Counted from the stretch's first letter, positions 53,902 to 64,000 are shown. The stretch: DNA of 64,000 nucleotides from Candidatus Omnitrophota bacterium (GCA_003485765.1 DNHS01000051.1:2314-66313), one strand, 5' to 3'. The notes: generated by a model not told the origin, from the letters alone. Program-made: numbers and translations.

Positions 53902-55233
53902 TTAGATGCCGACTTTTTTGAAAATAGTATTTACGTGTTTTGTATAATATGCAACTTCAAAGAAACTACTCATTTCCTTGGGTTTCACAAATTTCATAAA
54001 ATCGCTGTCATCCCGTAACGCATCTTTGAAATTAATATCTTTTTCCCAGACTTTCATGGCGCATCTTTGAATAATATTATACGCCTTTCTGCGCTCAAGG
54101 CCTTTTTTCTCAAGCTCTACCAGAATCCTTGCAGAAAATACAAGGCCTTTTGTTTTACTGAGATTATTCACCATGTTTTCTGGATACACTAAAAGCCCTC
54201 TTATAATCTCTATCATCTGGTTCAACATATAGTCCAGTAATATTGCGCTGTCAGGAATAATAATGCGCTCTGCTGAAGAATGGCTTATATCTCTTTCGTG
54301 CCACAGCGCAACATTTTCCATGGAGACAATTGCATTCGCCCGTAAAACCCTTGCAAGGCCTGTAATCCTTTCGCACATAACAGGATTTCTCTTGTGAGGC
54401 ATTGCGCTGGAACCTTTCTGGCCTTTTCCAAAAGGCTCTTCAACCTCTCTAACCTCTGTCTTCTGGAGATTTCTGAATTCCGTCGCTATTTTTTCAAGAG
54501 TAGCGCCCACAATAGCTATTTCTGACAAATATTCCGCATGCCTGTCTCTCTGGAGAATCTGCGTAGATATATTAGCAGGCTTAAGCCCTAATTTTTTGCA
54601 TACATAATTCTCAACATAAGGCTCTATATTTGAATATGTGCCTACAGGCCCGGAAATTTTGCCTACGGATATAATTTCCCTGGCTCTTTCAATCCTAACA
54701 ATGCTTCTATTTATCTCATCAAAAAATAACGCTAATTTTAGGCCAAATGTAGTTGGTTCAGCGTGCACGCCATGGCTTCTTCCGACCATAATAGTATAGG
54801 CGTATTTTTTAGCCTTTTTTCTCAGTTCTTCTTTTAATATCTTCAGGTCTTCCAGAATAATATCGGCTGATTCCTTCATCATTATAGATAAACCTGTATC
54901 CAAGACATCGCTTGAAGTAAGGCCCTGATGCACAAACCTTGAAGAATCTCCTATATATTCAGCTATATTGTGAAGAAACGCTATTACGTCATGGCGGGTT
55001 GTTTTTTCTATTTTTTCTATGCGTTTTACATCAAATTTTGCTTTGGATTTTATTTTTCTAAGCTCTTTTTTCGGTATTTTGCCTAGACTAGTTAGGGCTT
55101 CGCAGGCTAGAATTTCAACATCCAGCATCTTCTGGAATTTATTCTCATCAGACCATATAGCAGACATCTTAGGAAGCGAATATCTTGGTATCATAAGGAC
55201 TATAATATACCATATATAGATTATATGCGTCAA
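53902..55233 (-). CDS. purB: Adenylosuccinate lyase. The start is probably the internal MIPRYS.
   Basis: RYSLPKMSAIWSDENKFQ...TSSDVLDTGL...GSSAMPHKRNP matches the fumarate-lyase signature. Confidence 0.9.
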   Translation of the reverse strand: MTHIIYIWYIIVLMIPRYSLPKMSAIWSDENKFQKMLDVEILACEALTSLGKIPKKELRKIKSKAKFDVKRIEKIEKTTRHDVIAFLHNIAEYIGDSSRFVHQGLTSSDVLDTGLSIMMKESADIILEDLKILKEELRKKAKKYAYTIMVGRSHGVHAEPTTFGLKLALFFDEINRSIVRIERAREIISVGKISGPVGTYSNIEPYVENYVCKKLGLKPANISTQILQRDRHAEYLSEIAIVGATLEKIATEFRNLQKTEVREVEEPFGKGQKGSSAMPHKRNPVMCERITGLARVLRANAIVSMENVALWHERDISHSSAERIIIPDSAILLDYMLNQMIEIIRGLLVYPENMVNNLSKTKGLVFSARILVELEKKGLERRKAYNIIQRCAMKVWEKDINFKDALRDDSDFMKFVKPKEMSSFFEVAYYTKHVNTIFKKVGI

Positions 55234-55286: not shown

Positions 55287-56003
55287 CTATTTTTTCTTAG
55301 AAGAATAAAGTATAAGGACTAGTATAAAAACAGCTATCAAGAGAAGCAGTAGAGTAATACTTTGCATAAAGCGCATTGACAAGCGGCCTGATTTTTCTTT
55401 TATTATCACAGAGCCATCTAAATCAGAAACAGGGGAACCATTTTTTAATCTGAGATTACCCAGCGTATCCACCCATAAATAATATACTCTACCTTGGATA
55501 TCAGCCAGCACAATCTTGCTCGGCCCGGTTGTATCACCTTTTAAGATCAGGTCTTTTCTAAGAGTGAGTGATCCTGACATTACAGAATCTATGTCATTTC
55601 TTAATAACTGGCTTGAGTTTATCATATCAATGGATTTTGCATTCAAAGCATAAACAGAACTTGCAAGTTTTATGCGAGGTGTCATCTCTCCATCACTCGC
55701 AACCTCCATGCCAAACCACAAATCTTTATTAAAATCTATTTCCAGAGGTTTCACAGAACCCATGAGCACATTGAACAGGCCATTTTTAATATTAAGGATA
55801 TGCCCTTCTTCCCAGATAGACAGGCCGTCTTTTTCCATATCATAAAACCTGAATGTAACTAAAAAATTGCCTGTTAAGGGGTTGTCGTCTTTATCAGTAA
55901 GTCTCCCTTGATAGTTTATGACACGCGGAATAGCAGCATAGGTAAGAGCAGTTAAACATAAGATTCCGATTAGAATAAAGAGTGTTATGCGAAATTTTCT
56001 CAT
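55287..56003 (-). CDS. Hypothetical envelope protein with an N-terminal signal peptide and a C-terminal TM anchor plus KKK tail.
   Basis: The N-terminus is MRKFRITLFILIGILCLTALTYA. The C-terminus is ITLLLLLIAVFILVLILYSSKKK. The conserved-looking motif INYQGRLTD is of unknown function. Confidence 0.5.
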   Translation of the reverse strand: MRKFRITLFILIGILCLTALTYAAIPRVINYQGRLTDKDDNPLTGNFLVTFRFYDMEKDGLSIWEEGHILNIKNGLFNVLMGSVKPLEIDFNKDLWFGMEVASDGEMTPRIKLASSVYALNAKSIDMINSSQLLRNDIDSVMSGSLTLRKDLILKGDTTGPSKIVLADIQGRVYYLWVDTLGNLRLKNGSPVSDLDGSVIIKEKSGRLSMRFMQSITLLLLLIAVFILVLILYSSKKK

Positions 56004-56127: not shown

Positions 56128-57240
56128 TTATTTGCCGTCTTTAATTTCCAAGGAAAATTTATCTTTGAATATCTTCTCCATGTAACTTTCTGATAGATGC
56201 TTATACTTTTCCATGGTCTTAGGATTCCTCCAGCCCCCTATCTTCTGTATCACATCTAAAGGAACCCCGAGTTGGCTACTTTGAGAAGCCCAGGTATGTC
56301 TTGTCTTATGTTGCATCTTCACGGGAACGCCTACAGACTCGCATATCTTCCTGAATTCTCTCCTGATGGAGTCCTGAGCAAGATAGTTACCAACTGAGTT
56401 AGTAAAGACCCACCTATCGTGTCCATGATGTAAGGCTTGTAATATACACATTAGCTCAGGTGCGATAGGAACATCTCTAATTTCCTTGTTCTTAACCCTG
56501 AAATAAAGGGTAGGGCTGACCTGCTTTGGTCTTATATAGATCCTGCCTCTGCTGAAATCTATATCATCCCATGTTAAAAATCTCAGCTCATTTCTTCTTA
56601 GTCCAGCATAGAATAAGGTAGCGAGAATAGCATGCCAGTTTATTGATTCACTAAGAGTCTTGGCTTTTTCAAGAATTAATTTTATCTCCTCTAAGCTATA
56701 AAAGAACTCGTCTGCGTCAGGCTCAGCAAAAGGCTTTACCTTCTTTTTGACTGGATTTTTTAATAAGAGGTCTCTCTCATCTATTAAATATTTAAACAAA
56801 CTACTTAGAGTGTCCCTTTCAAAATTAACTGTCCTAGGATGCCTCCCTTTTTCATCCAATCTATAACGCATGAATTCTGCGATGTGGTTGGACTGGATTT
56901 CGTCCAGATACTGCAAAGAAGGATATCTATCCTTTAAGAATTTCTTAAAATTATCCATGACAATGCGATACCTTATATAACTAACGGGACTTCCTAATTG
57001 TTTCTTCTTTGCCTCTAAGTAGGCCTCTATGCCTTGTTTAATCGTAACTCTATAAGAAGAGCAATTAGACTTTTTGCTTTTAAGCTGTCTAACGTAGTCG
57101 CCGTAATTAATGATAGCCTCTTCCCTTGTTTCACCAAGTTTAAGCCAGGACCTTGAGTTATCAGGATTAGTTACTCTAATTGCTAAATATTTTCCACGGC
57201 GTTTAGTTGGGAATTTTGGTATTCTTAATCGCTTTCTCAT
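56128..57240 (-). mobile_element. Tyrosine-type site-specific integrase (phage integrase family). It marks the left edge of the mobile/defence island.
   Basis: The C-terminal catalytic region is HKTRHTWASQ...IGGWRNPKTMEKYKH (R..H..R..Y). An N-terminal SAM-like region is present. Confidence 0.9.
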
Positions 57241-57428
57241 AATAGTTTAGTGTTTACTGAATTTACTAGATGCTCTGTGTTCCAGGCATCGAGATCCTGT
57301 TCCCTGAACCGAAGCAAGCCCCTTATCTTAAGATGAGGGATAAATTTTTTTGCTGTCCATTGATAGAGAGTCCAAAGCTTTATGCTGTATTTCTCGCATA
57401 CCTGCTCTGGAGTTAAAAGGGTGCTCAT
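57237..57428 (-). CDS. Excisionase/AlpA-like small HTH protein.
   Basis: LLTPEQVCEKYSIKLWTLYQWTAKKFIPHLKIRG has the AlpA/MerR-like excisionase pattern. It overlaps the integrase gene. Confidence 0.6.
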   Translation of the reverse strand: MSTLLTPEQVCEKYSIKLWTLYQWTAKKFIPHLKIRGLLRFREQDLDAWNTEHLVNSVNTKLL

Positions 57429-57649
57429 CGCTGTGCCCCTCCCTCTTCTAGAACATAGAACTCTTTGGGCTCCTTATTAAGCGCTATACCGAGCAAAACC
57501 AGAAAATGCCCGGATGGTGTAGATTTTCCGCTCTCCCACATTGACACCAACGGCCTGTCGACGTCAACTCTTGCAGCTAATTCTGCCATAGTGAGCCCTA
57601 ATTCTTTACGTCTAACTTTTAATCTTTCACCTTGCCATATTGCCTTCAT
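57425..57649 (-). CDS. XRE-family (Cro/CI-type) HTH regulator.
   Basis: LKVRRKELGLTMAELAARVDVDRPLVSMWESGKSTP matches the HTH_3 domain. Confidence 0.7.
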   Translation of the reverse strand: MKAIWQGERLKVRRKELGLTMAELAARVDVDRPLVSMWESGKSTPSGHFLVLLGIALNKEPKEFYVLEEGGAQR

Positions 57650-57891
57650 GATTACGCCTCCTTAATGTTATAGAATCGAACGTCTTGTTTAAGCCATTTC
57701 CAAAACTCAGAAGCAAAAGCATACAGTCTTTTACCCCCTTAAATATTATGCTCAATTTTCGGATAGACCTTTAATCAAAATTCAAAAAATATTTCTAATT
57801 TAACCTATTTATTTACAATGTCTTATAAAAGCAGACAAAAAAATATTTTTCGAGCTAATAACTAAATATCGCTTTAACTGTTGCTAAAAGT

Positions 57892-58374
57892 GTGCTATTA
57901 TACTCACTTATGGACAAGTGCTTACCTTGCCAAAAATGTCATAAACCAACTTCCTATATACGCCATGGGAAATTCGCTCTTAAAACTGGCAGACACGTGC
58001 AAAGAATTCGCTGTAAGAATTGTGGAAAGACATCCATTATTAGTTACTCGCCCTTTTTCTTTGACAGAATGCATACAGACCCAGAAAAATTTAACAAAGC
58101 TATGTCACTTTATAAAGAGGGTTACTCTATAAAAAGCATTGCCCTGCAACTTAAAATGCGACCAAATACGGTAATTGACTGGATTAAAAAAGTCAAACAG
58201 TATAAATACCTATATATAAGTTATCTAAAAAAATACCGTTCCTATAATTACCGTCAGGTTGCAGAATTCTTTAAAGATTTCAGCCGTCTTGCCAAAATAA
58301 AAAGAACAAAACAGCTTAAGCAATACAGGAAGAATCGGCCTGTGGAACCATCATCCTCCTTTGCACCCTCATAA
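57892..58374 (+). mobile_element. IS1-like InsA-type protein (zinc ribbon plus HTH); transposase N-terminal fragment.
   Basis: CLPCQKCHK...RHVQRIRCKNCGKTS is the zinc ribbon. The HTH is SLYKEGYSIKSIALQLKMRPNTVIDWIKK. No DDE domain follows. Confidence 0.45.
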
Positions 58375-59140
58375 ATAATCGCTTGCTCACTATCGACTCG
58401 TGCTTACCTCGACTTTTTATTTCGCCGAAAGTAGCCTCGCCATAATAAATCGTATTCCTTAATATATACTTCACAGACTCAATTTGAAAAGGCTTGCCTC
58501 GTCTTGTCAACATCCCACTCTTATTAAGATTTTCAGCGATTTTGGAGTAACTTAGTCCTTTAGCAGCCCAGCGAAATATCTTCTCCACGAATTCTGATTC
58601 CTTGGGGTTAATCTCCAACAGATCTCCTGTCTTCGAATACCCGAACGGTAAAGCACCACAGGCTTTCTTCCCATTCTCGGCAGATTCGATTCGCCCTTCG
58701 CGCAGACGAAAAACAATAAGTTCCTTTTCAAGTTGACTGAAGACATGGGTTATATTACGAAAGGCAACCTGCAGAGGGTCATTGGTATCAAGCTCGGGGT
58801 CTAACACAGAGCTAAGTTCTATATCATATTTCCTGAGTTGTGTCTCAATCCAAATAGCTGTAGTAATTTCACGAGCCAATCGGTCATGCCTAAAAACTAC
58901 TACCCTCTTAATCTTGCCTGTCTCACAATCCTTTAATAAACTGAGCAAAGCCGGTCTGTCTCTAACGGCTCCACTAACGCCTTTCTCCTCATAGAATCTT
59001 GCTAATTCAAATCCTTTCTCATTACAAAATTCAGTTATTCTCTTCTTTTGAATTGCAAGCCCTGCACCGTTTTCCACCTGATTCATACTACTGACTCTTA
59101 CATATCCAATAACAATACCTTCGGAATGCATAACAATCAC
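58316..59140 (-). mobile_element. Serine recombinase (resolvase/invertase N-terminal catalytic domain plus recombinase domain).
   Basis: The catalytic serine region is VIGYVRVSSMNQ. This is followed by GLAIQKKRITEFC...RVVVFRHDRLAR. Confidence 0.85.
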
Positions 59141-59348: not shown

Positions 59349-59858
59349 TTACTTGGGGTTATCATAATGCTCACGAACTTCGTGCGCCCATTTCACAATA
59401 ACCTCATTCAATGCTTTCTTATTCTGCCTCGATAACTTACCCAGGGGCATTCGATGAATAAATAAGTCAGTAATACCTTTCTCAAAAATACCTCCTGAAA
59501 CATTATCTTCACAAAATACCAGAAGAGGCAATCTCAGAGCAAATAGTATACCAGCTTCTATTTGATTCCAAGGCGTAGGGAATGCTATAAGCTTATTCTG
59601 CTTCGATTGCGAACGTGTTCCCTTCTTCCACGTGCCTGTTTTGGTTTCAAATTGTGAAAAACCGAGAATAAGTCCTCCGGAACAGTGTTTGGCGAGAACG
59701 TGAACTTCATGTAAAGGACACTTAGTAGGATAGTCTGTTTGGCCTAAAGACCTCCATTCTAATTCTAAACGGTCTAATTGGCGAAAAATCATTTTCTTCG
59801 CTTCAAACTGGCGACTATTAATAAGCGTCGGACAAGAACCAAAAATAGGAATTCGCAT
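59349..59858 (-). CDS. Hypothetical protein, third gene of the TIR-SLATT cassette. It may be a nucleotide-sensing (SLOG-like) module.
   Basis: It is 169 aa, soluble and co-oriented with a 16-nt gap after the SLATT gene. The only weak similarity is GG-containing Rossmann-like segments (HCSGGLILGF, SGGIFEKG). Confidence 0.45.
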   Translation of the reverse strand: MRIPIFGSCPTLINSRQFEAKKMIFRQLDRLELEWRSLGQTDYPTKCPLHEVHVLAKHCSGGLILGFSQFETKTGTWKKGTRSQSKQNKLIAFPTPWNQIEAGILFALRLPLLVFCEDNVSGGIFEKGITDLFIHRMPLGKLSRQNKKALNEVIVKWAHEVREHYDNPK

Positions 59859-59874
59859 AGGTTACCCCGCTACT

Positions 59875-60375
59875 CTATTTGTCGGTAGTATCTTGCTTAC
59901 CACAAGAGGAAGCTATATCACCACCTTTATGACGAGAAAACCATCCAGTGCCTTCGCTTATTATCAACGCTTCTACTCTGTCTACAAATAAACACTTCTT
60001 ATCTGGTGCATTCCTGTATTCACCACAGTCTGCGTTATACCAATGAAGCTCATGCCCTAACGCATCCCATGTAGCCCTATAGCTAAGCCAATTTCCATAG
60101 CAACGAAAAAGAGACAGAAGGCCGGCCGCAAGAGCTACTGTTGGTGAAAGAATCGATACTATAACCTTGCCTCCAAATGTAAATGAACCAATTTTTATAA
60201 GAGAATCTGGCAAAAGATTCAGAATTGGAGTAACCGCTACGGAGACTACCAGAATATATGCCGAATAAAACCTATACCAAAACCTGCTACGATTAGCCTT
60301 GTCATCATAATACTTCATTATTTTACTGTAGCGGTCATCCTTATAAACAACAAATTCTTGGTCTGTCATAATCAC
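59875..60375 (-). CDS. SLATT-family (DUF4231-like) two-TM effector protein.
   Basis: Two hydrophobic helices (YILVVSVAVTPILNLL and IVSILSPTVALAAGLLSLF) are followed by NWLSYRATWDALGHELHWY. This matches the DUF4231/SLATT signature (NW.rYR..aE.L..E...Y). Confidence 0.6.
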   Translation of the reverse strand: MIMTDQEFVVYKDDRYSKIMKYYDDKANRSRFWYRFYSAYILVVSVAVTPILNLLPDSLIKIGSFTFGGKVIVSILSPTVALAAGLLSLFRCYGNWLSYRATWDALGHELHWYNADCGEYRNAPDKKCLFVDRVEALIISEGTGWFSRHKGGDIASSCGKQDTTDK

Positions 60376-60388
60376 CTCATTTTAAGAC

Positions 60389-60787
60389 TTATTGAGTTAG
60401 CTCTTCCATCTTCTTAACAATGGCACTTATATTCCACGTTAATCTTGGGTGTCCGTCCAAGGGTGCAGGATAATACTTTGTCCGACCGTCACTATAAAGA
60501 TTCACCCCCATAATAGGCTTACCCAGCTCTAGAGCTTTATTCAATTCCCATTCCACCCACTTACTCTTAGAAGTAGCTGGCCCATAAAGGCAAATTACAA
60601 GACTTGAATATTTTATCTGGTTCGTGATACCTCTGGCGATATAGTCGGAATTATTACTATCGAAGGGTTCCTTTATCGAATAATCATCGAATTCCAAATC
60701 AAGGTCTTCATTCTTAGCCTGCCCTCGAAAAAGATTGACGAGATTCAAGTCTTCTTCAACGAAACTTAAGAAAGCGCGTATTGCCAT
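60389..60787 (-). CDS. TIR-like domain protein (DUF1863/ThsB-like).
   Basis: The N-terminus is IRAFLSFVEEDLNLVNLFRG. The central region is SLVICLYGPATSKSKWVEWELNKALELGKPIMGVNL. It matches the MTH538 TIR-like flavodoxin-fold pattern. Confidence 0.6.
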   Translation of the reverse strand: MAIRAFLSFVEEDLNLVNLFRGQAKNEDLDLEFDDYSIKEPFDSNNSDYIARGITNQIKYSSLVICLYGPATSKSKWVEWELNKALELGKPIMGVNLYSDGRTKYYPAPLDGHPRLTWNISAIVKKMEELTQ

Positions 60788-60992
60788 AGTAACCTCCTTA
60801 TCAGATCTTTATTTATCGTTAAGCCTCACGGCAAATTTTAGAGGGGGCCTCGAAGCCCCACTTAACATATACACTTTAAGATGTATGTGAAAAAGGAGAA
60901 ACTCCCTCTGGTAAACCACTATAATTATAACAGCTACTCACTAATACCTCAATAATGAAAGTATTTAGATTGCTGTCTATACAATGACTTTG

Positions 60993-61060
60993 GAAATCCC
61001 AAAAGGTAAAATCCTTAACTAACCTAAAAAGTCCTTTGCTAAGTCAAACTAAAGCCAAAG
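60993..61060. repeat. Direct repeat A (about 65 bp), paired with repeat B at 62398-62462.
   Basis: AATCCCAAAAGGTAAAATCCTTAAC...TAAAAAGTCCT...CTAAGTCAAACTAAAGCC is about 88% identical to repeat B. It ends 5 nt before the ImmA stop codon. Confidence 0.7.
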
Positions 61061-61064
61061 ACAA

Positions 61065-61571
61065 CTACACTATTTTCAATTTTAACAACCTAATCCAAAG
61101 AGCATCTTTACTAACCCTATATAATTTAGCCACCTCTTCTACATTTCTTGTTTTCTGAAAGTCTCTCTTTAACATAAACAAAGGCATAAGAAGCTCCCCG
61201 GCAAAATAATTTGCTTCTTGCTCTTGAACTTTATTATGTTCTGAATCCGAAGCGTCAAATCTACCTTCTGATATTTCAGACATATCTACAAAAATATCCT
61301 TATAATGTCCTAACAAATAGTGACCTATCTCATGAGCAATAGAAAATCTTTGCCTATTAGGATGATGAGCGTTATTAACTCCTACAACTAGCATGTCGGA
61401 TTCTTTCAGGAGTATAGCAGATACTTTCTCAGGAAACGGATACGGAAGAAGGTTTATTCCTACGTGGGAAAGAATTTTATTAAGGTCAACTGGTGGAATA
61501 TCGGTTTTTGTTTCGCTTATAAGTTTCTGCGCAATTTTTGTGGCGTGTGAATATCGCGGCTTGTCAATCAT
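61065..61571 (-). CDS. ImmA/IrrE-family zinc metallopeptidase (COG2856; CapP-like).
   Basis: The HEXXH motif is AHEIGHYLLGH. The N-terminal region is typical of ImmA. It overlaps the upstream HTH gene by 4 nt. Confidence 0.8.
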   Translation of the reverse strand: MIDKPRYSHATKIAQKLISETKTDIPPVDLNKILSHVGINLLPYPFPEKVSAILLKESDMLVVGVNNAHHPNRQRFSIAHEIGHYLLGHYKDIFVDMSEISEGRFDASDSEHNKVQEQEANYFAGELLMPLFMLKRDFQKTRNVEEVAKLYRVSKDALWIRLLKLKIV

Positions 61572-61933
61572 TTAGTCTTTCCAAACTTCTTCTTCGCGAG
61601 CTCAGTAAAATCAAGGATACTTTTCTCTGTCTCCTTGTCCAATTTATCATAATTCGCCCTTAGCTTTATGGCGAATTCCTTAGGTTCAATCTGTGCAGTA
61701 GCTGCTTTTGGAAGAAAATCTTCAACTGTTTTATTCAGCACCTTGGCAATTTTTATCAGATCATCTATACTTACCTTTCTCGCCCCACTTTCAAAATAAG
61801 AAATTGCGGTAGCGCTATCCTTACCAATTAGTTCTGCAAGCTGAACTTGAGATAGTCCCTTTTGAAGCCTGAACTCTAAGACTTTCCTCCCTATAAAACT
61901 ATTTATCTGCTGGTCAATGTTCTCGTTCGCCAA
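61568..61933 (-). CDS. XRE-family HTH regulator (ImmR/CapH-like).
   Basis: The HTH_3 domain is KVLEFRLQKGLSQVQLAELIGKDSATAISYFESG. It is translationally coupled to the ImmA-like gene. Confidence 0.8.
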   Translation of the reverse strand: MANENIDQQINSFIGRKVLEFRLQKGLSQVQLAELIGKDSATAISYFESGARKVSIDDLIKIAKVLNKTVEDFLPKAATAQIEPKEFAIKLRANYDKLDKETEKSILDFTELAKKKFGKTK

Positions 61934-62009
61934 TCGAATCCTCCTTCAATTTAATAAAATGTTACCATTAAATTAAGCACATGTCAACACTTATTATTAA
62001 AAGAAACAC

Positions 62010-62037
62010 TTGACATCACTTACCAAAATGGTATAAT
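62010..62037 (+). promoter_or_regulatory. Strong sigma70-type promoter (TTGACA-16-TATAAT), divergent from the XRE gene. It is overlapped by the inverted repeat ATGTCAA...TTGACAT.
   Basis: The sequence is CTTGACATCACTTACCAAAATGGTATAATTG. The dyad ATGTCAACAC...CACTTGACAT at 61981-62016 is a candidate operator. Confidence 0.5.
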
Positions 62038-62193
62038 TGTATCGCACAAAAAGCAAACCCGCAAAGGCCCTTGGTGGGAGCTCTACTAAGGTTTGCTAAT
62101 GTGTTTCTTACGATTGATTTGATTTTATAATAGGCCTTAAGGAAAGTCAATACAATTTCCTCCCTTCCCACAAAACAAGAAAGGAGGAAAGCT

Positions 62194-62319
62194 ATGTCTA
62201 AGCCAAAGGGATATAAAATCGGGCGAGATGCCGGTTCAGGTCAGTTTATTCCAGTAAAAGAAGCTCAAACACGAAAGTCAACAGCCGTAGTTGAGGTAAT
62301 GCCCCGGAAGAAAAAATAA
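62194..62319 (+). CDS. Small basic ORF (41 aa, MSKPKGYKIGRDAGSGQFIPVKEAQTRKSTAVVEVMPRKKK).
   Basis: A perfect RBS (AAGGAGGAAAGCT) precedes the ATG. It lies downstream of the strong promoter and is followed by an intrinsic terminator. It falls below the ORF-track size cutoff. Confidence 0.4.
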   Translation: MSKPKGYKIGRDAGSGQFIPVKEAQTRKSTAVVEVMPRKKK

Positions 62320-62485: not shown

Positions 62486-64000
62486 TTACTCATCGCCATT
62501 ATCGACGTGCTTCTTGAACGCTTGCCTCACTAAAGCCATAACATCATCCAATTGACTGGTAGAACTCAGATGAACCTCCACATCTCCATTACCCCATCTA
62601 CCCAAGTTGGTCACGTCCTTACATAAGTTTTTAGGGTCAATGACTTCGTCAAATCGCATATTAAGCGCAAGTCTCAAACGGCTTTTCTGCGGCACCACAT
62701 CAACGAAATTAGTCGTGGTCTTATAAGCAATGTATAGCTTTAACATTTCTTCTTTAACCGAAGAATCTAAATTAAGCACATGCTTACGAAACTGCTCAAA
62801 CAGCTCTCGCATTTCCCCGGTTAGATGGGGGTAGTTATCAATTGTGTAAGTTTGTTCCTGTAAAATTTCTCGCTTACGATATTTAGTTAACACATCCTCC
62901 GACAATACCGGATACCCCCAAACTTGGGTAACAATTCCTGCTAATACCTGTGCGCGTTTTTGTATCTCCGCCTCATTCCATATAGACAAACTGGCTAAAT
63001 CTCTGTTGAGTCGAATAGGACTATCGGCAAAACCGCCTTTCATATTTCTTTTCTCAAGAAATGATTTATCGGAAAGTTCTGGGTTATAACCTGTTAAAGT
63101 TAAGTTACCGAGTGTATGTAAATAACGAGACTGAATATCTTTCCAATGCTCACCTAAATCCTTTCTCCATTCCGCTGATAGGTTAGGATTTTGCGGCATA
63201 ATATGCTCTGTAGTGTATCCTTCAGTATCAACCATTTCTTTACGGTTGTAATTTTCAAGTTTAAATAGCAGGTAATTTTTACTTCTAAAATTATAGACAT
63301 CTTTCACACCAAGCTCACGAATGAATTCACTATCATCGGGGAATCGCCGGTAAGAATCCTTTAAAAGAAGGGTTGCCTTAAAGCTCTCAAGATAATTTGT
63401 TTTATCCAATTCTCTACTAAGCGTAGCAAAGGTTTTGTTCAATGAGTTAGTAGGTATGCCACAGATTGCTCGGCGGAAGACATAGCTCTCAATTGACTTA
63501 AGAATCTCTATGAGCTCATCACGACTTATGCGCTTCTTCTTATAATCATCATAAGCCTCTAATATAAAAGGGTAGGCTACGTCGACTTTTAAAATATTTA
63601 TGTCACTAAACAACTCTCTCAGCTCCTCATCTGATTCCTTTTCAAGAGCTGTATTAACAAAATGCTTTGCGTAAACATAAATGTCGCCCACAATATCTTT
63701 TATTGATATAGTCCTATGTTCCTTCACATAAGCTTTAAATTCCTCATATACCTCATTAATCTTCGGAATACTGCCCGTCTTTATTGTCAAATAATCTCTC
63801 ATAAAACGGTCGAACTGAGTAACGTAGTCGATTTGACCAAATCCCTGCTCCATCTGAAACCAGTAATCGTTATAAAGAGATTCTTGCTCCTTTGGTTCAA
63901 GCCCCATCAAAACATAATTCCTTATTAAATCAGCTTGGCTTAACTCAAGTCCCGTTGAATTCAGGCTTTCAAAGATAAGCTGTGGGTTATCGTGGTCTCG
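62486..64000 (-). CDS. GmrSD-like type IV restriction endonuclease (DUF262 + DUF1524). The 5' end runs off the window.
   Basis: The DUF1524 HNH-like motifs are TEHIMPQNP and LHTLGNLTLTGYN. The reading frame stays open to the window edge, encoding ...QLIFESLNSTGLELSQADLIRNY, which matches the end of DUF262. Confidence 0.8.
   Translation of the reverse strand, partial: RDHDNPQLIFESLNSTGLELSQADLIRNYVLMGLEPKEQESLYNDYWFQMEQGFGQIDYVTQFDRFMRDYLTIKTGSIPKINEVYEEFKAYVKEHRTISIKDIVGDIYVYAKHFVNTALEKESDEELRELFSDINILKVDVAYPFILEAYDDYKKKRISRDELIEILKSIESYVFRRAICGIPTNSLNKTFATLSRELDKTNYLESFKATLLLKDSYRRFPDDSEFIRELGVKDVYNFRSKNYLLFKLENYNRKEMVDTEGYTTEHIMPQNPNLSAEWRKDLGEHWKDIQSRYLHTLGNLTLTGYNPELSDKSFLEKRNMKGGFADSPIRLNRDLASLSIWNEAEIQKRAQVLAGIVTQVWGYPVLSEDVLTKYRKREILQEQTYTIDNYPHLTGEMRELFEQFRKHVLNLDSSVKEEMLKLYIAYKTTTNFVDVVPQKSRLRLALNMRFDEVIDPKNLCKDVTNLGRWGNGDVEVHLSSTSQLDDVMALVRQAFKKHVDNGDE

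Follow-up and report, generated by a model that had tools for sequence, protein, structure and literature searches.

Defence systems that combine a TIR protein with a SLATT membrane protein have been described under several names. The association was predicted in 2022 by Iyer et al., who also reported occasional helix-turn-helix (HTH) and zincin-peptidase neighbours (PMC9503650), and it was validated in 2024 as "Shaseng", consisting of a SLATT protein and one or two TIR proteins (bioRxiv 10.1101/2024.12.27.630466). The same pair, ThsB and ThsH, was validated as type VII Thoeris by Yirmiya et al., who scanned about 600 million proteins. Upon infection, the type VII TIR makes canonical cyclic ADP-ribose (cADPR), and external cADPR is toxic to cells bearing the system. 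Types VII and VIII are together present in about 2% of genomes, and rare operons carry both SLATT and cytidine monophosphate (CMP) hydrolase effectors (ThsH and ThsI) (bioRxiv 10.64898/2025.12.03.692087). Other Thoeris effectors have a SLOG or Macro sensor, which SLATT and caspase effectors do not (bioRxiv 10.1101/2024.12.27.630466). Here, we analysed a 64,000-nucleotide stretch of DNA from Candidatus Omnitrophota bacterium (GCA_003485765.1 DNHS01000051.1:2314-66313; hereafter the window), in which a ThsB-type TIR gene and a SLATT gene are followed by a third gene that is conserved in relatives and encodes a soluble protein of 169 amino acids (aa), designated P169. A preliminary description of the locus had taken the whole gene combination to be undescribed. 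The TIR and SLATT core is already known, and what seems to be new here is the conserved third gene alone. The genes are arranged as follows, in the direction of transcription:

61568-61933, minus strand: XRE HTH regulator, 121 aa (Pfam HTH_3, 2.8e-12; PADLOC capH, 1.2e-12)
61065-61571, minus strand: ImmA/IrrE-type M78 zinc metallopeptidase with HEIGH motif, 168 aa (Pfam Peptidase_M78, 1.2e-24; PADLOC capP, 1.1e-30)
60924-60952, minus strand: promoter-like site, TTGAGG-17-TATAAT with extended TG (10/12 consensus matches; a weak pattern match only)
60389-60787, minus strand: thsB-like TIR gene, 132 aa (Pfam ThsB_TIR PF08937, 6e-19; PADLOC ThsB1, 1.8e-12)
59875-60375, minus strand: thsH-like SLATT/DUF4231 gene with two transmembrane segments (NCBIfam SLATT_1, 1.1e-22; DUF4231 PF14015, 3e-10)
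59349-59858, minus strand: third gene, encoding P169 (no library family match)

All five open reading frames (ORFs) proposed earlier were confirmed on the minus strand between positions 59349 and 61933, and the motifs quoted for them were all present (FLSFVEEDL and SLVICLYGP...SKWVEWEL in the TIR protein, NWLSYRATWDALGHELHWY in the SLATT protein and AHEIGHYLLGH in the peptidase). The TIR, SLATT, XRE and ImmA domain calls were upheld by Pfam, PADLOC and NCBIfam matches, while the accession given for DUF4231 (PF14355) had to be corrected to PF14015. The XRE and ImmA genes overlap by 4 nt (ATGA), which agrees with the translational coupling suggested for them. The TIR, SLATT and P169 genes are 13-19 nt apart and each has its own ribosome-binding site, that of the SLATT gene being GAGGTG. 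The true start of the SLATT gene is probably the ATG at 60369 (164 aa) and not the GTG at 60375, and in its product approximately residues 34-54 and 67-88 form two hydrophobic segments. Between the ImmA and TIR genes there is a gap of 277 bp containing the promoter-like site 60924-60952, which may, from its sequence, be the promoter of the three-gene operon. Pfam and PADLOC revealed no SIR2, SLOG or Macro domain among the window proteins scanned, so that the absence of ThsA was corroborated, and with it the idea of a Thoeris-type TIR system in which a free-standing SLATT effector takes its place. The PADLOC candidate system PDC-M50B was also considered and discarded: it matched the TIR, but the SLATT and P169 proteins matched no PDC-M50 component.

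Validated type VII TIR domains matched the window TIR at 29-32% identity (E 5e-10 and 2e-11). In an alignment with 30 diverse ThsB TIRs, which included validated domains of types I, IV, V, VII and VIII, the catalytic glutamate E81 was invariant, and F6, S8 and W77 were nearly invariant. By analogy with these relatives, the window TIR is predicted to be the phage-triggered generator of a NAD+-derived signal. The locus resembles type VII Thoeris in that a small ThsB-type TIR with an intact catalytic glutamate lies directly beside a two-helix SLATT effector in one operon, in that more than one TIR gene is often found, and in its setting in a defence island or mobile element. In contrast, the validated systems have a two-gene architecture of generator and single effector (or the order TIR, TIR, SLATT), whereas the clade of the window adds a conserved third gene. 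Further differences are the TIR identity of only 29-32% and the host, an uncultured member of the Omnitrophota.

Metagenome contigs were scanned with the window TIR, and 80 loci were recovered, 49 of which had at least 1.1 kb downstream of the TIR gene. Among these 49 informative loci, phmmer detected the TIR-SLATT-P169 order in 26. Another six carried the TIR and a single SLATT gene without P169, all of them with more distant TIRs (50-55% identity), and the remaining 17 had neither SLATT nor P169. Consequently, 26 of the 32 single-SLATT loci carried P169 after the SLATT gene, and P169 was present at every locus with a single SLATT beside a closely related TIR (about 63% identity or more). The SLATT and P169 genes overlapped or abutted at several loci. 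A second TIR gene was present in 11 of the 20 trio loci with room for one, trios often having two or three, and TIR domains were the sole recurrent family when 39 ORFs upstream of related loci were scanned with Pfam. In the P169 tree, the proteins of the trio type grouped as one clade, and trios of other gene order (L021, L026 and L070) were placed on different branches. On the basis of this conserved order, its dedicated clade and the fusions described below, the third gene belongs with the TIR and SLATT system.

At about 10 of the 17 loci that were negative by phmmer, the gene after the TIR encoded a membrane protein of about 300 aa. Four of these proteins were checked (L099, L134, L137 and L152) and all were tandem SLATT_3 and SLATT_1 proteins with four predicted helices. 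The TIR clade is thus firmly linked to SLATT, and the presence of a different kind of effector at TIR loci without detected SLATT was rejected for the four that were checked. The proteins at L136, L139, L154 and L158-L160 are probably tandem SLATTs as well. Within the same TIR clade, the single SLATT was accompanied by P169 whereas the tandem SLATT never was.

P169 was matched by none of the libraries Pfam, PADLOC, NCBIfam and PHROGs, and a sequence-profile search of the PDB returned nothing at E values up to 10. It is 100% identical to a recorded protein from a Candidatus Omnitrophica metagenome-assembled genome and has 688 homologues, mostly 53-65% identical over their full length, none of which contained a Pfam domain. 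An exhaustive profile search yielded 1,156 cluster representatives (50% identity clusters), and P169 was found in 208 species-representative genomes from many bacterial phyla and from Thermoplasmata archaea. Conservation was high, with 26 invariant columns and a mean column identity of 63% in a 45-sequence alignment, and with about 50% identity between bacteria and archaea. One Thermoplasmata chromosome carried a second, partial P169 copy (L001 9224-9409; E 2e-14) about 2.7 kb downstream of the full-length one.

The AlphaFold2 model of P169 was a confident α/β structure (pLDDT 89.5, pTM 0.84). Its best structural neighbours were enzymes, namely the CMP hydrolase MilB (the top match), nucleoside deoxyribosyltransferases (NDTs) and the TIR domain of TIR-STING, and Foldseek searches against the PDB and against viral models agreed on the fold class. 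According to this model, P169 is a Rossmannoid fold of the TIR/DrHyd(NDT, MilB)/SLOG (TDS) class, in line with the SLOG-like fold suspected previously. The class was defined by the Aravind group; its catalytic members target N-glycosidic bonds, and inactive ones serve as sensors (PMC9503650). Both hallmarks of the published class that were tested were found in P169. After strand 1 (residues 3-8) come the invariant S8 and P10, and the helix 96-107, which follows strand 3, has the invariant W97, N98 and E101 at its start. The P169 motifs [ST]-x-W-x-x-x-E and F-x-S coincide in position with the βA and αC motifs of TIR, and the sole segment that hhalign aligned between P169 and ThsB was TPWNQIEAG with SKWVEWEL.

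Compared with ThsA (SIR2-SLOG, type I) and with the TIR-SLOG effector of type IX, P169 shows no sequence similarity to SLOG families and is a separate, unfused protein in the window. It resembles ThsI, the type VIII effector composed of a CMP hydrolase and a TPR-S domain, in having MilB as its best structural match and in sharing an operon with SLATT, but it has 169 aa against the 417 aa of ThsI and no TPR-S. Because P169 also fails the ThsI profile match, the window is not a dual-effector operon of ThsH and ThsI. The Yersinia ThsI (417 aa) adjoins MobA/TraD genes. The CARF domains of type III CRISPR systems offer a further parallel, as small nucleotide-binding domains that are both free-standing (ring nucleases) and fused to effectors; their fold and signalling chemistry are unrelated to P169, and the likeness is only an analogy.

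We also looked at the surroundings of P169 at 80 loci from species-representative genomes. SLATT was the only recurrent neighbour (about 13 of the 80 loci), and the neighbours of solitary copies were unrelated housekeeping genes and occasionally defence genes, as Pfam neighbour scans agreed. At six loci P169 was accompanied by SLATT only, and two of these also carried large TIR-STAND proteins. Large TIR_2-nSTAND-TPR and DUF4062-nSTAND1-FGE proteins were likewise encoded beside P169 and SLATT, or beside a ThsB-type TIR, at L007 (302-3367), L016 (6577-9126) and L120 (824-3511), an indication that this SLATT/P169 module can also receive input from NLR-like TIR proteins. When P169 was considered as a phage counter-defence gene, a single match was obtained in 2.9 million viral contigs and this option was dropped.

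Several family members are covalently joined to other domains. A P169-SLATT fusion (P0125) adjoins a TIR_2-DUF4062 gene, two proteins are P169-TIR_2 fusions (P0122 and P0178), and two CHAT-P169 fusions (P0215 and P0237) adjoin a TPR-S protein. Pentapeptide repeats fused to P169 and a P169 with a weak HTH match were also found, and one P169 fusion shares its operon with TIR_2-SLOG and ThsB_TIR genes. Overall, 35 of the 150 top cluster representatives carried extensions, many of them C-terminal, which fell into 29 unrelated clusters; several of the contigs with fusion proteins were too short to give context. This pattern parallels that of SLOG in ThsA and in the TIR-SLOG effectors. At L162/L163 (P0215) and L173/L174, the CHAT-P169 gene is divergent from a 147-aa ORF and a gene for a MAP3K_TRAF_bd/TPR-S protein. 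The TPR-S ("sensor TPR") domain found beside CHAT-P169 is also part of the type VIII effector ThsI.

Taken together, we favour the explanation that the locus is a type VII Thoeris system with P169 as an additional receptor or regulator and with the XRE/ImmA pair outside it, to which we assign a probability of about 0.55. The core of this explanation, a type VII-like TIR and SLATT system with a conserved third gene and without XRE/ImmA, is very likely correct, whereas the more specific role of P169 as a nucleotide-binding receptor or regulator subunit working with SLATT is put forward tentatively and at somewhat less than even odds. The fold class and invariant residues of P169, its domain fusions, the domain calls, the layout of the operon and the conservation of the trio are shown here. 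The nature of the signal, the way the pore works and what P169 does are inferred, and the events would be as follows. Phage infection would activate the ThsB-type TIR, by analogy with validated type VII systems, and the TIR would convert NAD+ into a cADPR-type signal, which in the validated systems is canonical cADPR. P169 would bind this TIR-made nucleotide and act with SLATT as its receptor or regulatory subunit, and it may also cleave the N-glycosidic bond of the signal, by which an activation threshold would be set. The ThsH-like SLATT protein would then assemble in the membrane and growth would be arrested before the phage cycle is completed, as in abortive infection. The XRE/ImmA genes would represent a locally acquired repressor/protease pair of the ImmR/ImmA type. 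A receptor role is favoured because the fusions combine a constant domain with interchangeable killing domains, as expected of a sensor, because P169-SLATT beside a separate TIR reproduces the Thoeris layout of generator and sensor-effector, and because P169 is conserved far above the usual phage-sensing proteins.

Several observations weigh against this explanation. What is assumed of the signal molecule comes from distant relatives, whose TIRs are 29-32% identical, and the family placement of P169 comes entirely from a predicted structure: as a TIR, it gave no Pfam TIR match at E below 1 and an hhalign probability of 0.3% against the 30 ThsB TIRs, and as a ThsI, a probability of 0.1% against the Yersinia protein and no TPR-S domain. 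Since validated type VII systems have two genes, and since six loci combine the TIR with a single SLATT of similar size without P169, P169 is not an obligatory receptor. Its invariant glutamate at the catalytic position would equally fit an active N-glycosidase. Moreover, 64 of the 80 P169 loci in species-representative genomes had no SLATT or TIR detectable by phmmer, a mostly solitary distribution that is difficult to reconcile with a pure sensor in need of a partner, and the four P169 and SLATT loci without a visible TIR fit a signal-generating enzyme better.

These points lead to the main alternative, that P169 is an active N-glycosidase, TIR-like or deoxyribohydrolase-like. It would either generate additional signal, comparable to the extra ThsB genes common at these loci, or deplete NAD+ or a nucleotide as another effector in the manner of ThsI. 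It would explain the solitary copies and the TIR-less pairs of P169 and SLATT better than a receptor does, and it agrees with the motifs at the TIR βA and αC positions, including the TPWNQIEAG segment, with the enzymes found as closest structures, with the existence of rare operons of SLATT and CMP hydrolase (bioRxiv 10.64898/2025.12.03.692087), and with the two or three TIR genes often seen at trio loci. The distribution of P169 is also similar to that of TIR domains, being mostly solitary, paired with SLATT in the absence of TIR, and variably fused at the C-terminus, possibly to phage sensors. However, in profile comparisons P169 is not significantly similar to either ThsB TIRs or ThsI, TPR-S is missing, the stand-alone P169 has no variable domain, and its conservation (63% column identity and about 50% between bacteria and archaea) is far above that of the usual phage-sensing TIRs. 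In addition, a generator fused to a pore next to a separate TIR, as P0125 would be, makes less sense than a sensor-effector fusion. We therefore regard an enzymatic role of this kind as rather unlikely. A quite improbable variant, drawn from the analogy with CARF ring nucleases, is that P169 is an off-switch: it would break the cADPR-type signal at its N1-glycosidic bond by hydrolysis and so reset or buffer the system, and its solitary copies would protect against stray signal. All characterised catalytic TDS members cleave or transfer N-glycosidic bonds (PMC9503650), the glutamate at the catalytic position is invariant, elsewhere two genes suffice for the system to which P169 is added, and P169 occurs both free-standing and fused to effectors, like CARF domains. 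Yet solitary copies with no signalling system nearby have no obvious substrate, and the family is nearly absent from phages (the one match among 2.9 million viral contigs), to which such an activity would be useful. A signal destroyer fused to a pore would be counter-productive as well, unless it served as a self-limiting sensor. That the P169 gene is functionally unrelated to TIR and SLATT and a mere neighbour is very improbable: most family members are indeed solitary, with unrelated neighbours, but the gene holds a fixed place after SLATT in 26 loci from diverse metagenomes, forms a dedicated trio clade, is separated by intergenic gaps of at most 16 nt or even overlaps, and has been associated with SLATT or TIR repeatedly and independently; covalent fusions to both also exist.

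The remaining alternative concerns the other end of the locus. In the preliminary description the five genes formed one unit, with XRE/ImmA as a DNA-damage derepression switch of the CapH/CapP type. The top PADLOC matches of the pair are capH (1.2e-12) and capP (1.1e-30), it is co-oriented with and directly upstream of the trio, promoter-like sites are found in both intergenic regions, and HTH/zincin-peptidase genes sometimes lie beside TIR-SLATT (PMC9503650). The pair thus shares with CapH/CapP and with ImmR/ImmA an XRE HTH repressor gene coupled to a HEXXH M78 peptidase gene at the 5' side of an immune operon. Of the conservation envisaged for the trio and its XRE/ImmA neighbours in other genomes, only the former part was confirmed: phmmer found an XRE upstream in only one of 44 related loci, and Pfam found no Peptidase_M78 and a single HTH_3 among the 39 upstream ORFs. 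Placement upstream of the immune operon is therefore not conserved. The peptidase domain and the C-terminal GAF domain of CapP and IrrE enclose a groove in which single-stranded DNA (ssDNA) is sensed (PMC13228613). The window peptidase covers only positions 3-153 of the 242 of the capP profile, which together with its length of 168 aa indicates a peptidase domain alone, without GAF. As both the central HTH and the C-terminal GAF domain of CapP are missing, the ssDNA-sensing mechanism cannot be assumed for it. Its size fits the short, peptidase-only ImmA of ImmR/ImmA pairs on mobile elements, and the integrase, excisionase and recombinase genes of the island itself offer alternative targets for the pair. 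Hence the damage switch was not supported as a feature of the system and a single five-gene unit is improbable; the earlier interpretation was borne out in part. XRE/ImmA is a local addition and not part of the conserved system, and it may repress the Thoeris operon locally, in this island.

The location of the locus in an integrase-bearing island beside a GmrSD gene was verified, as the GmrSD gene, the tyrosine integrase and the serine recombinase were all real by Pfam. The surrounding features are:

62486-64000, minus strand: GmrSD-type gene, with a frame open to the window edge and not starting at the listed TTG 63910
62194-62319, plus strand: 41-aa ORF (MSKPKGYKIGRDAGSGQFIPVKEAQ), downstream of the sigma-70 consensus
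62156-62190: hairpin with a 16-bp stem
62010-62037, plus strand: perfect sigma-70 consensus, TTGACA-16-TATAAT (12/12)
61959-61987, minus strand: promoter-like site of the XRE gene, back-to-back with the plus-strand sigma-70 consensus
58316-59140: serine recombinase
57892-58374, plus strand: HTH/IS-like ORF, followed by the serine recombinase
56128-57240: tyrosine integrase, within the mobile-element module 56128-59140
55287-56003, minus strand: 238-aa protein, hydrophobic at the N-terminus (signal-like segment) and at the C-terminus (anchor)
53902-55233: purB, adenylosuccinate lyase-like

The GmrSD gene runs off the window, since its frame remains open and the translation ahead of that TTG resembles a GmrSD N-terminal half (FESLNSTGLELSQADLIRNYV); at the C-terminus a DUF5655 domain (6.5e-13) is added. 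The two promoter sequences at 62010-62037 and 61959-61987 look like a divergent switch. The integrase gene, a 63-aa excisionase-like ORF and a second XRE gene (74 aa) are chained by 4-nt overlaps. The island probably borders on the chromosome at the gene of the 238-aa protein, between purB and the integrase. No tRNA attachment site was found between 50 and 64 kb in the window and the region had no Rfam match.

A broader proposal, which we consider possible but doubtful, is that P169 represents a fourth kind of TDS-class domain, a receptor of TIR-made signals for SLATT pores and CHAT proteases, whose stand-alone copies bind or cleave the signal. How SLATT and caspase-type effectors sense the signal is a question raised in the literature (bioRxiv 10.1101/2024.12.27.630466), and P169 is genetically tied to both effector types. 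Defence-system finders miss P169 and the three-gene variant because there is no Pfam, NCBIfam, PADLOC or PHROG model for the protein, and the result for XRE/ImmA should guard against over-annotating such pairs as DNA-damage switches. If the proposal is true, it would explain how SLATT and CHAT effectors, for which the literature notes no SLOG or Macro sensor, perceive the signal in some of the Thoeris systems, through a separate subunit or through a fused domain (P169-SLATT, CHAT-P169 or P169-TIR). Stand-alone P169 would then tune or end immunity, as the Thoeris counterpart of the CRISPR ring nucleases.

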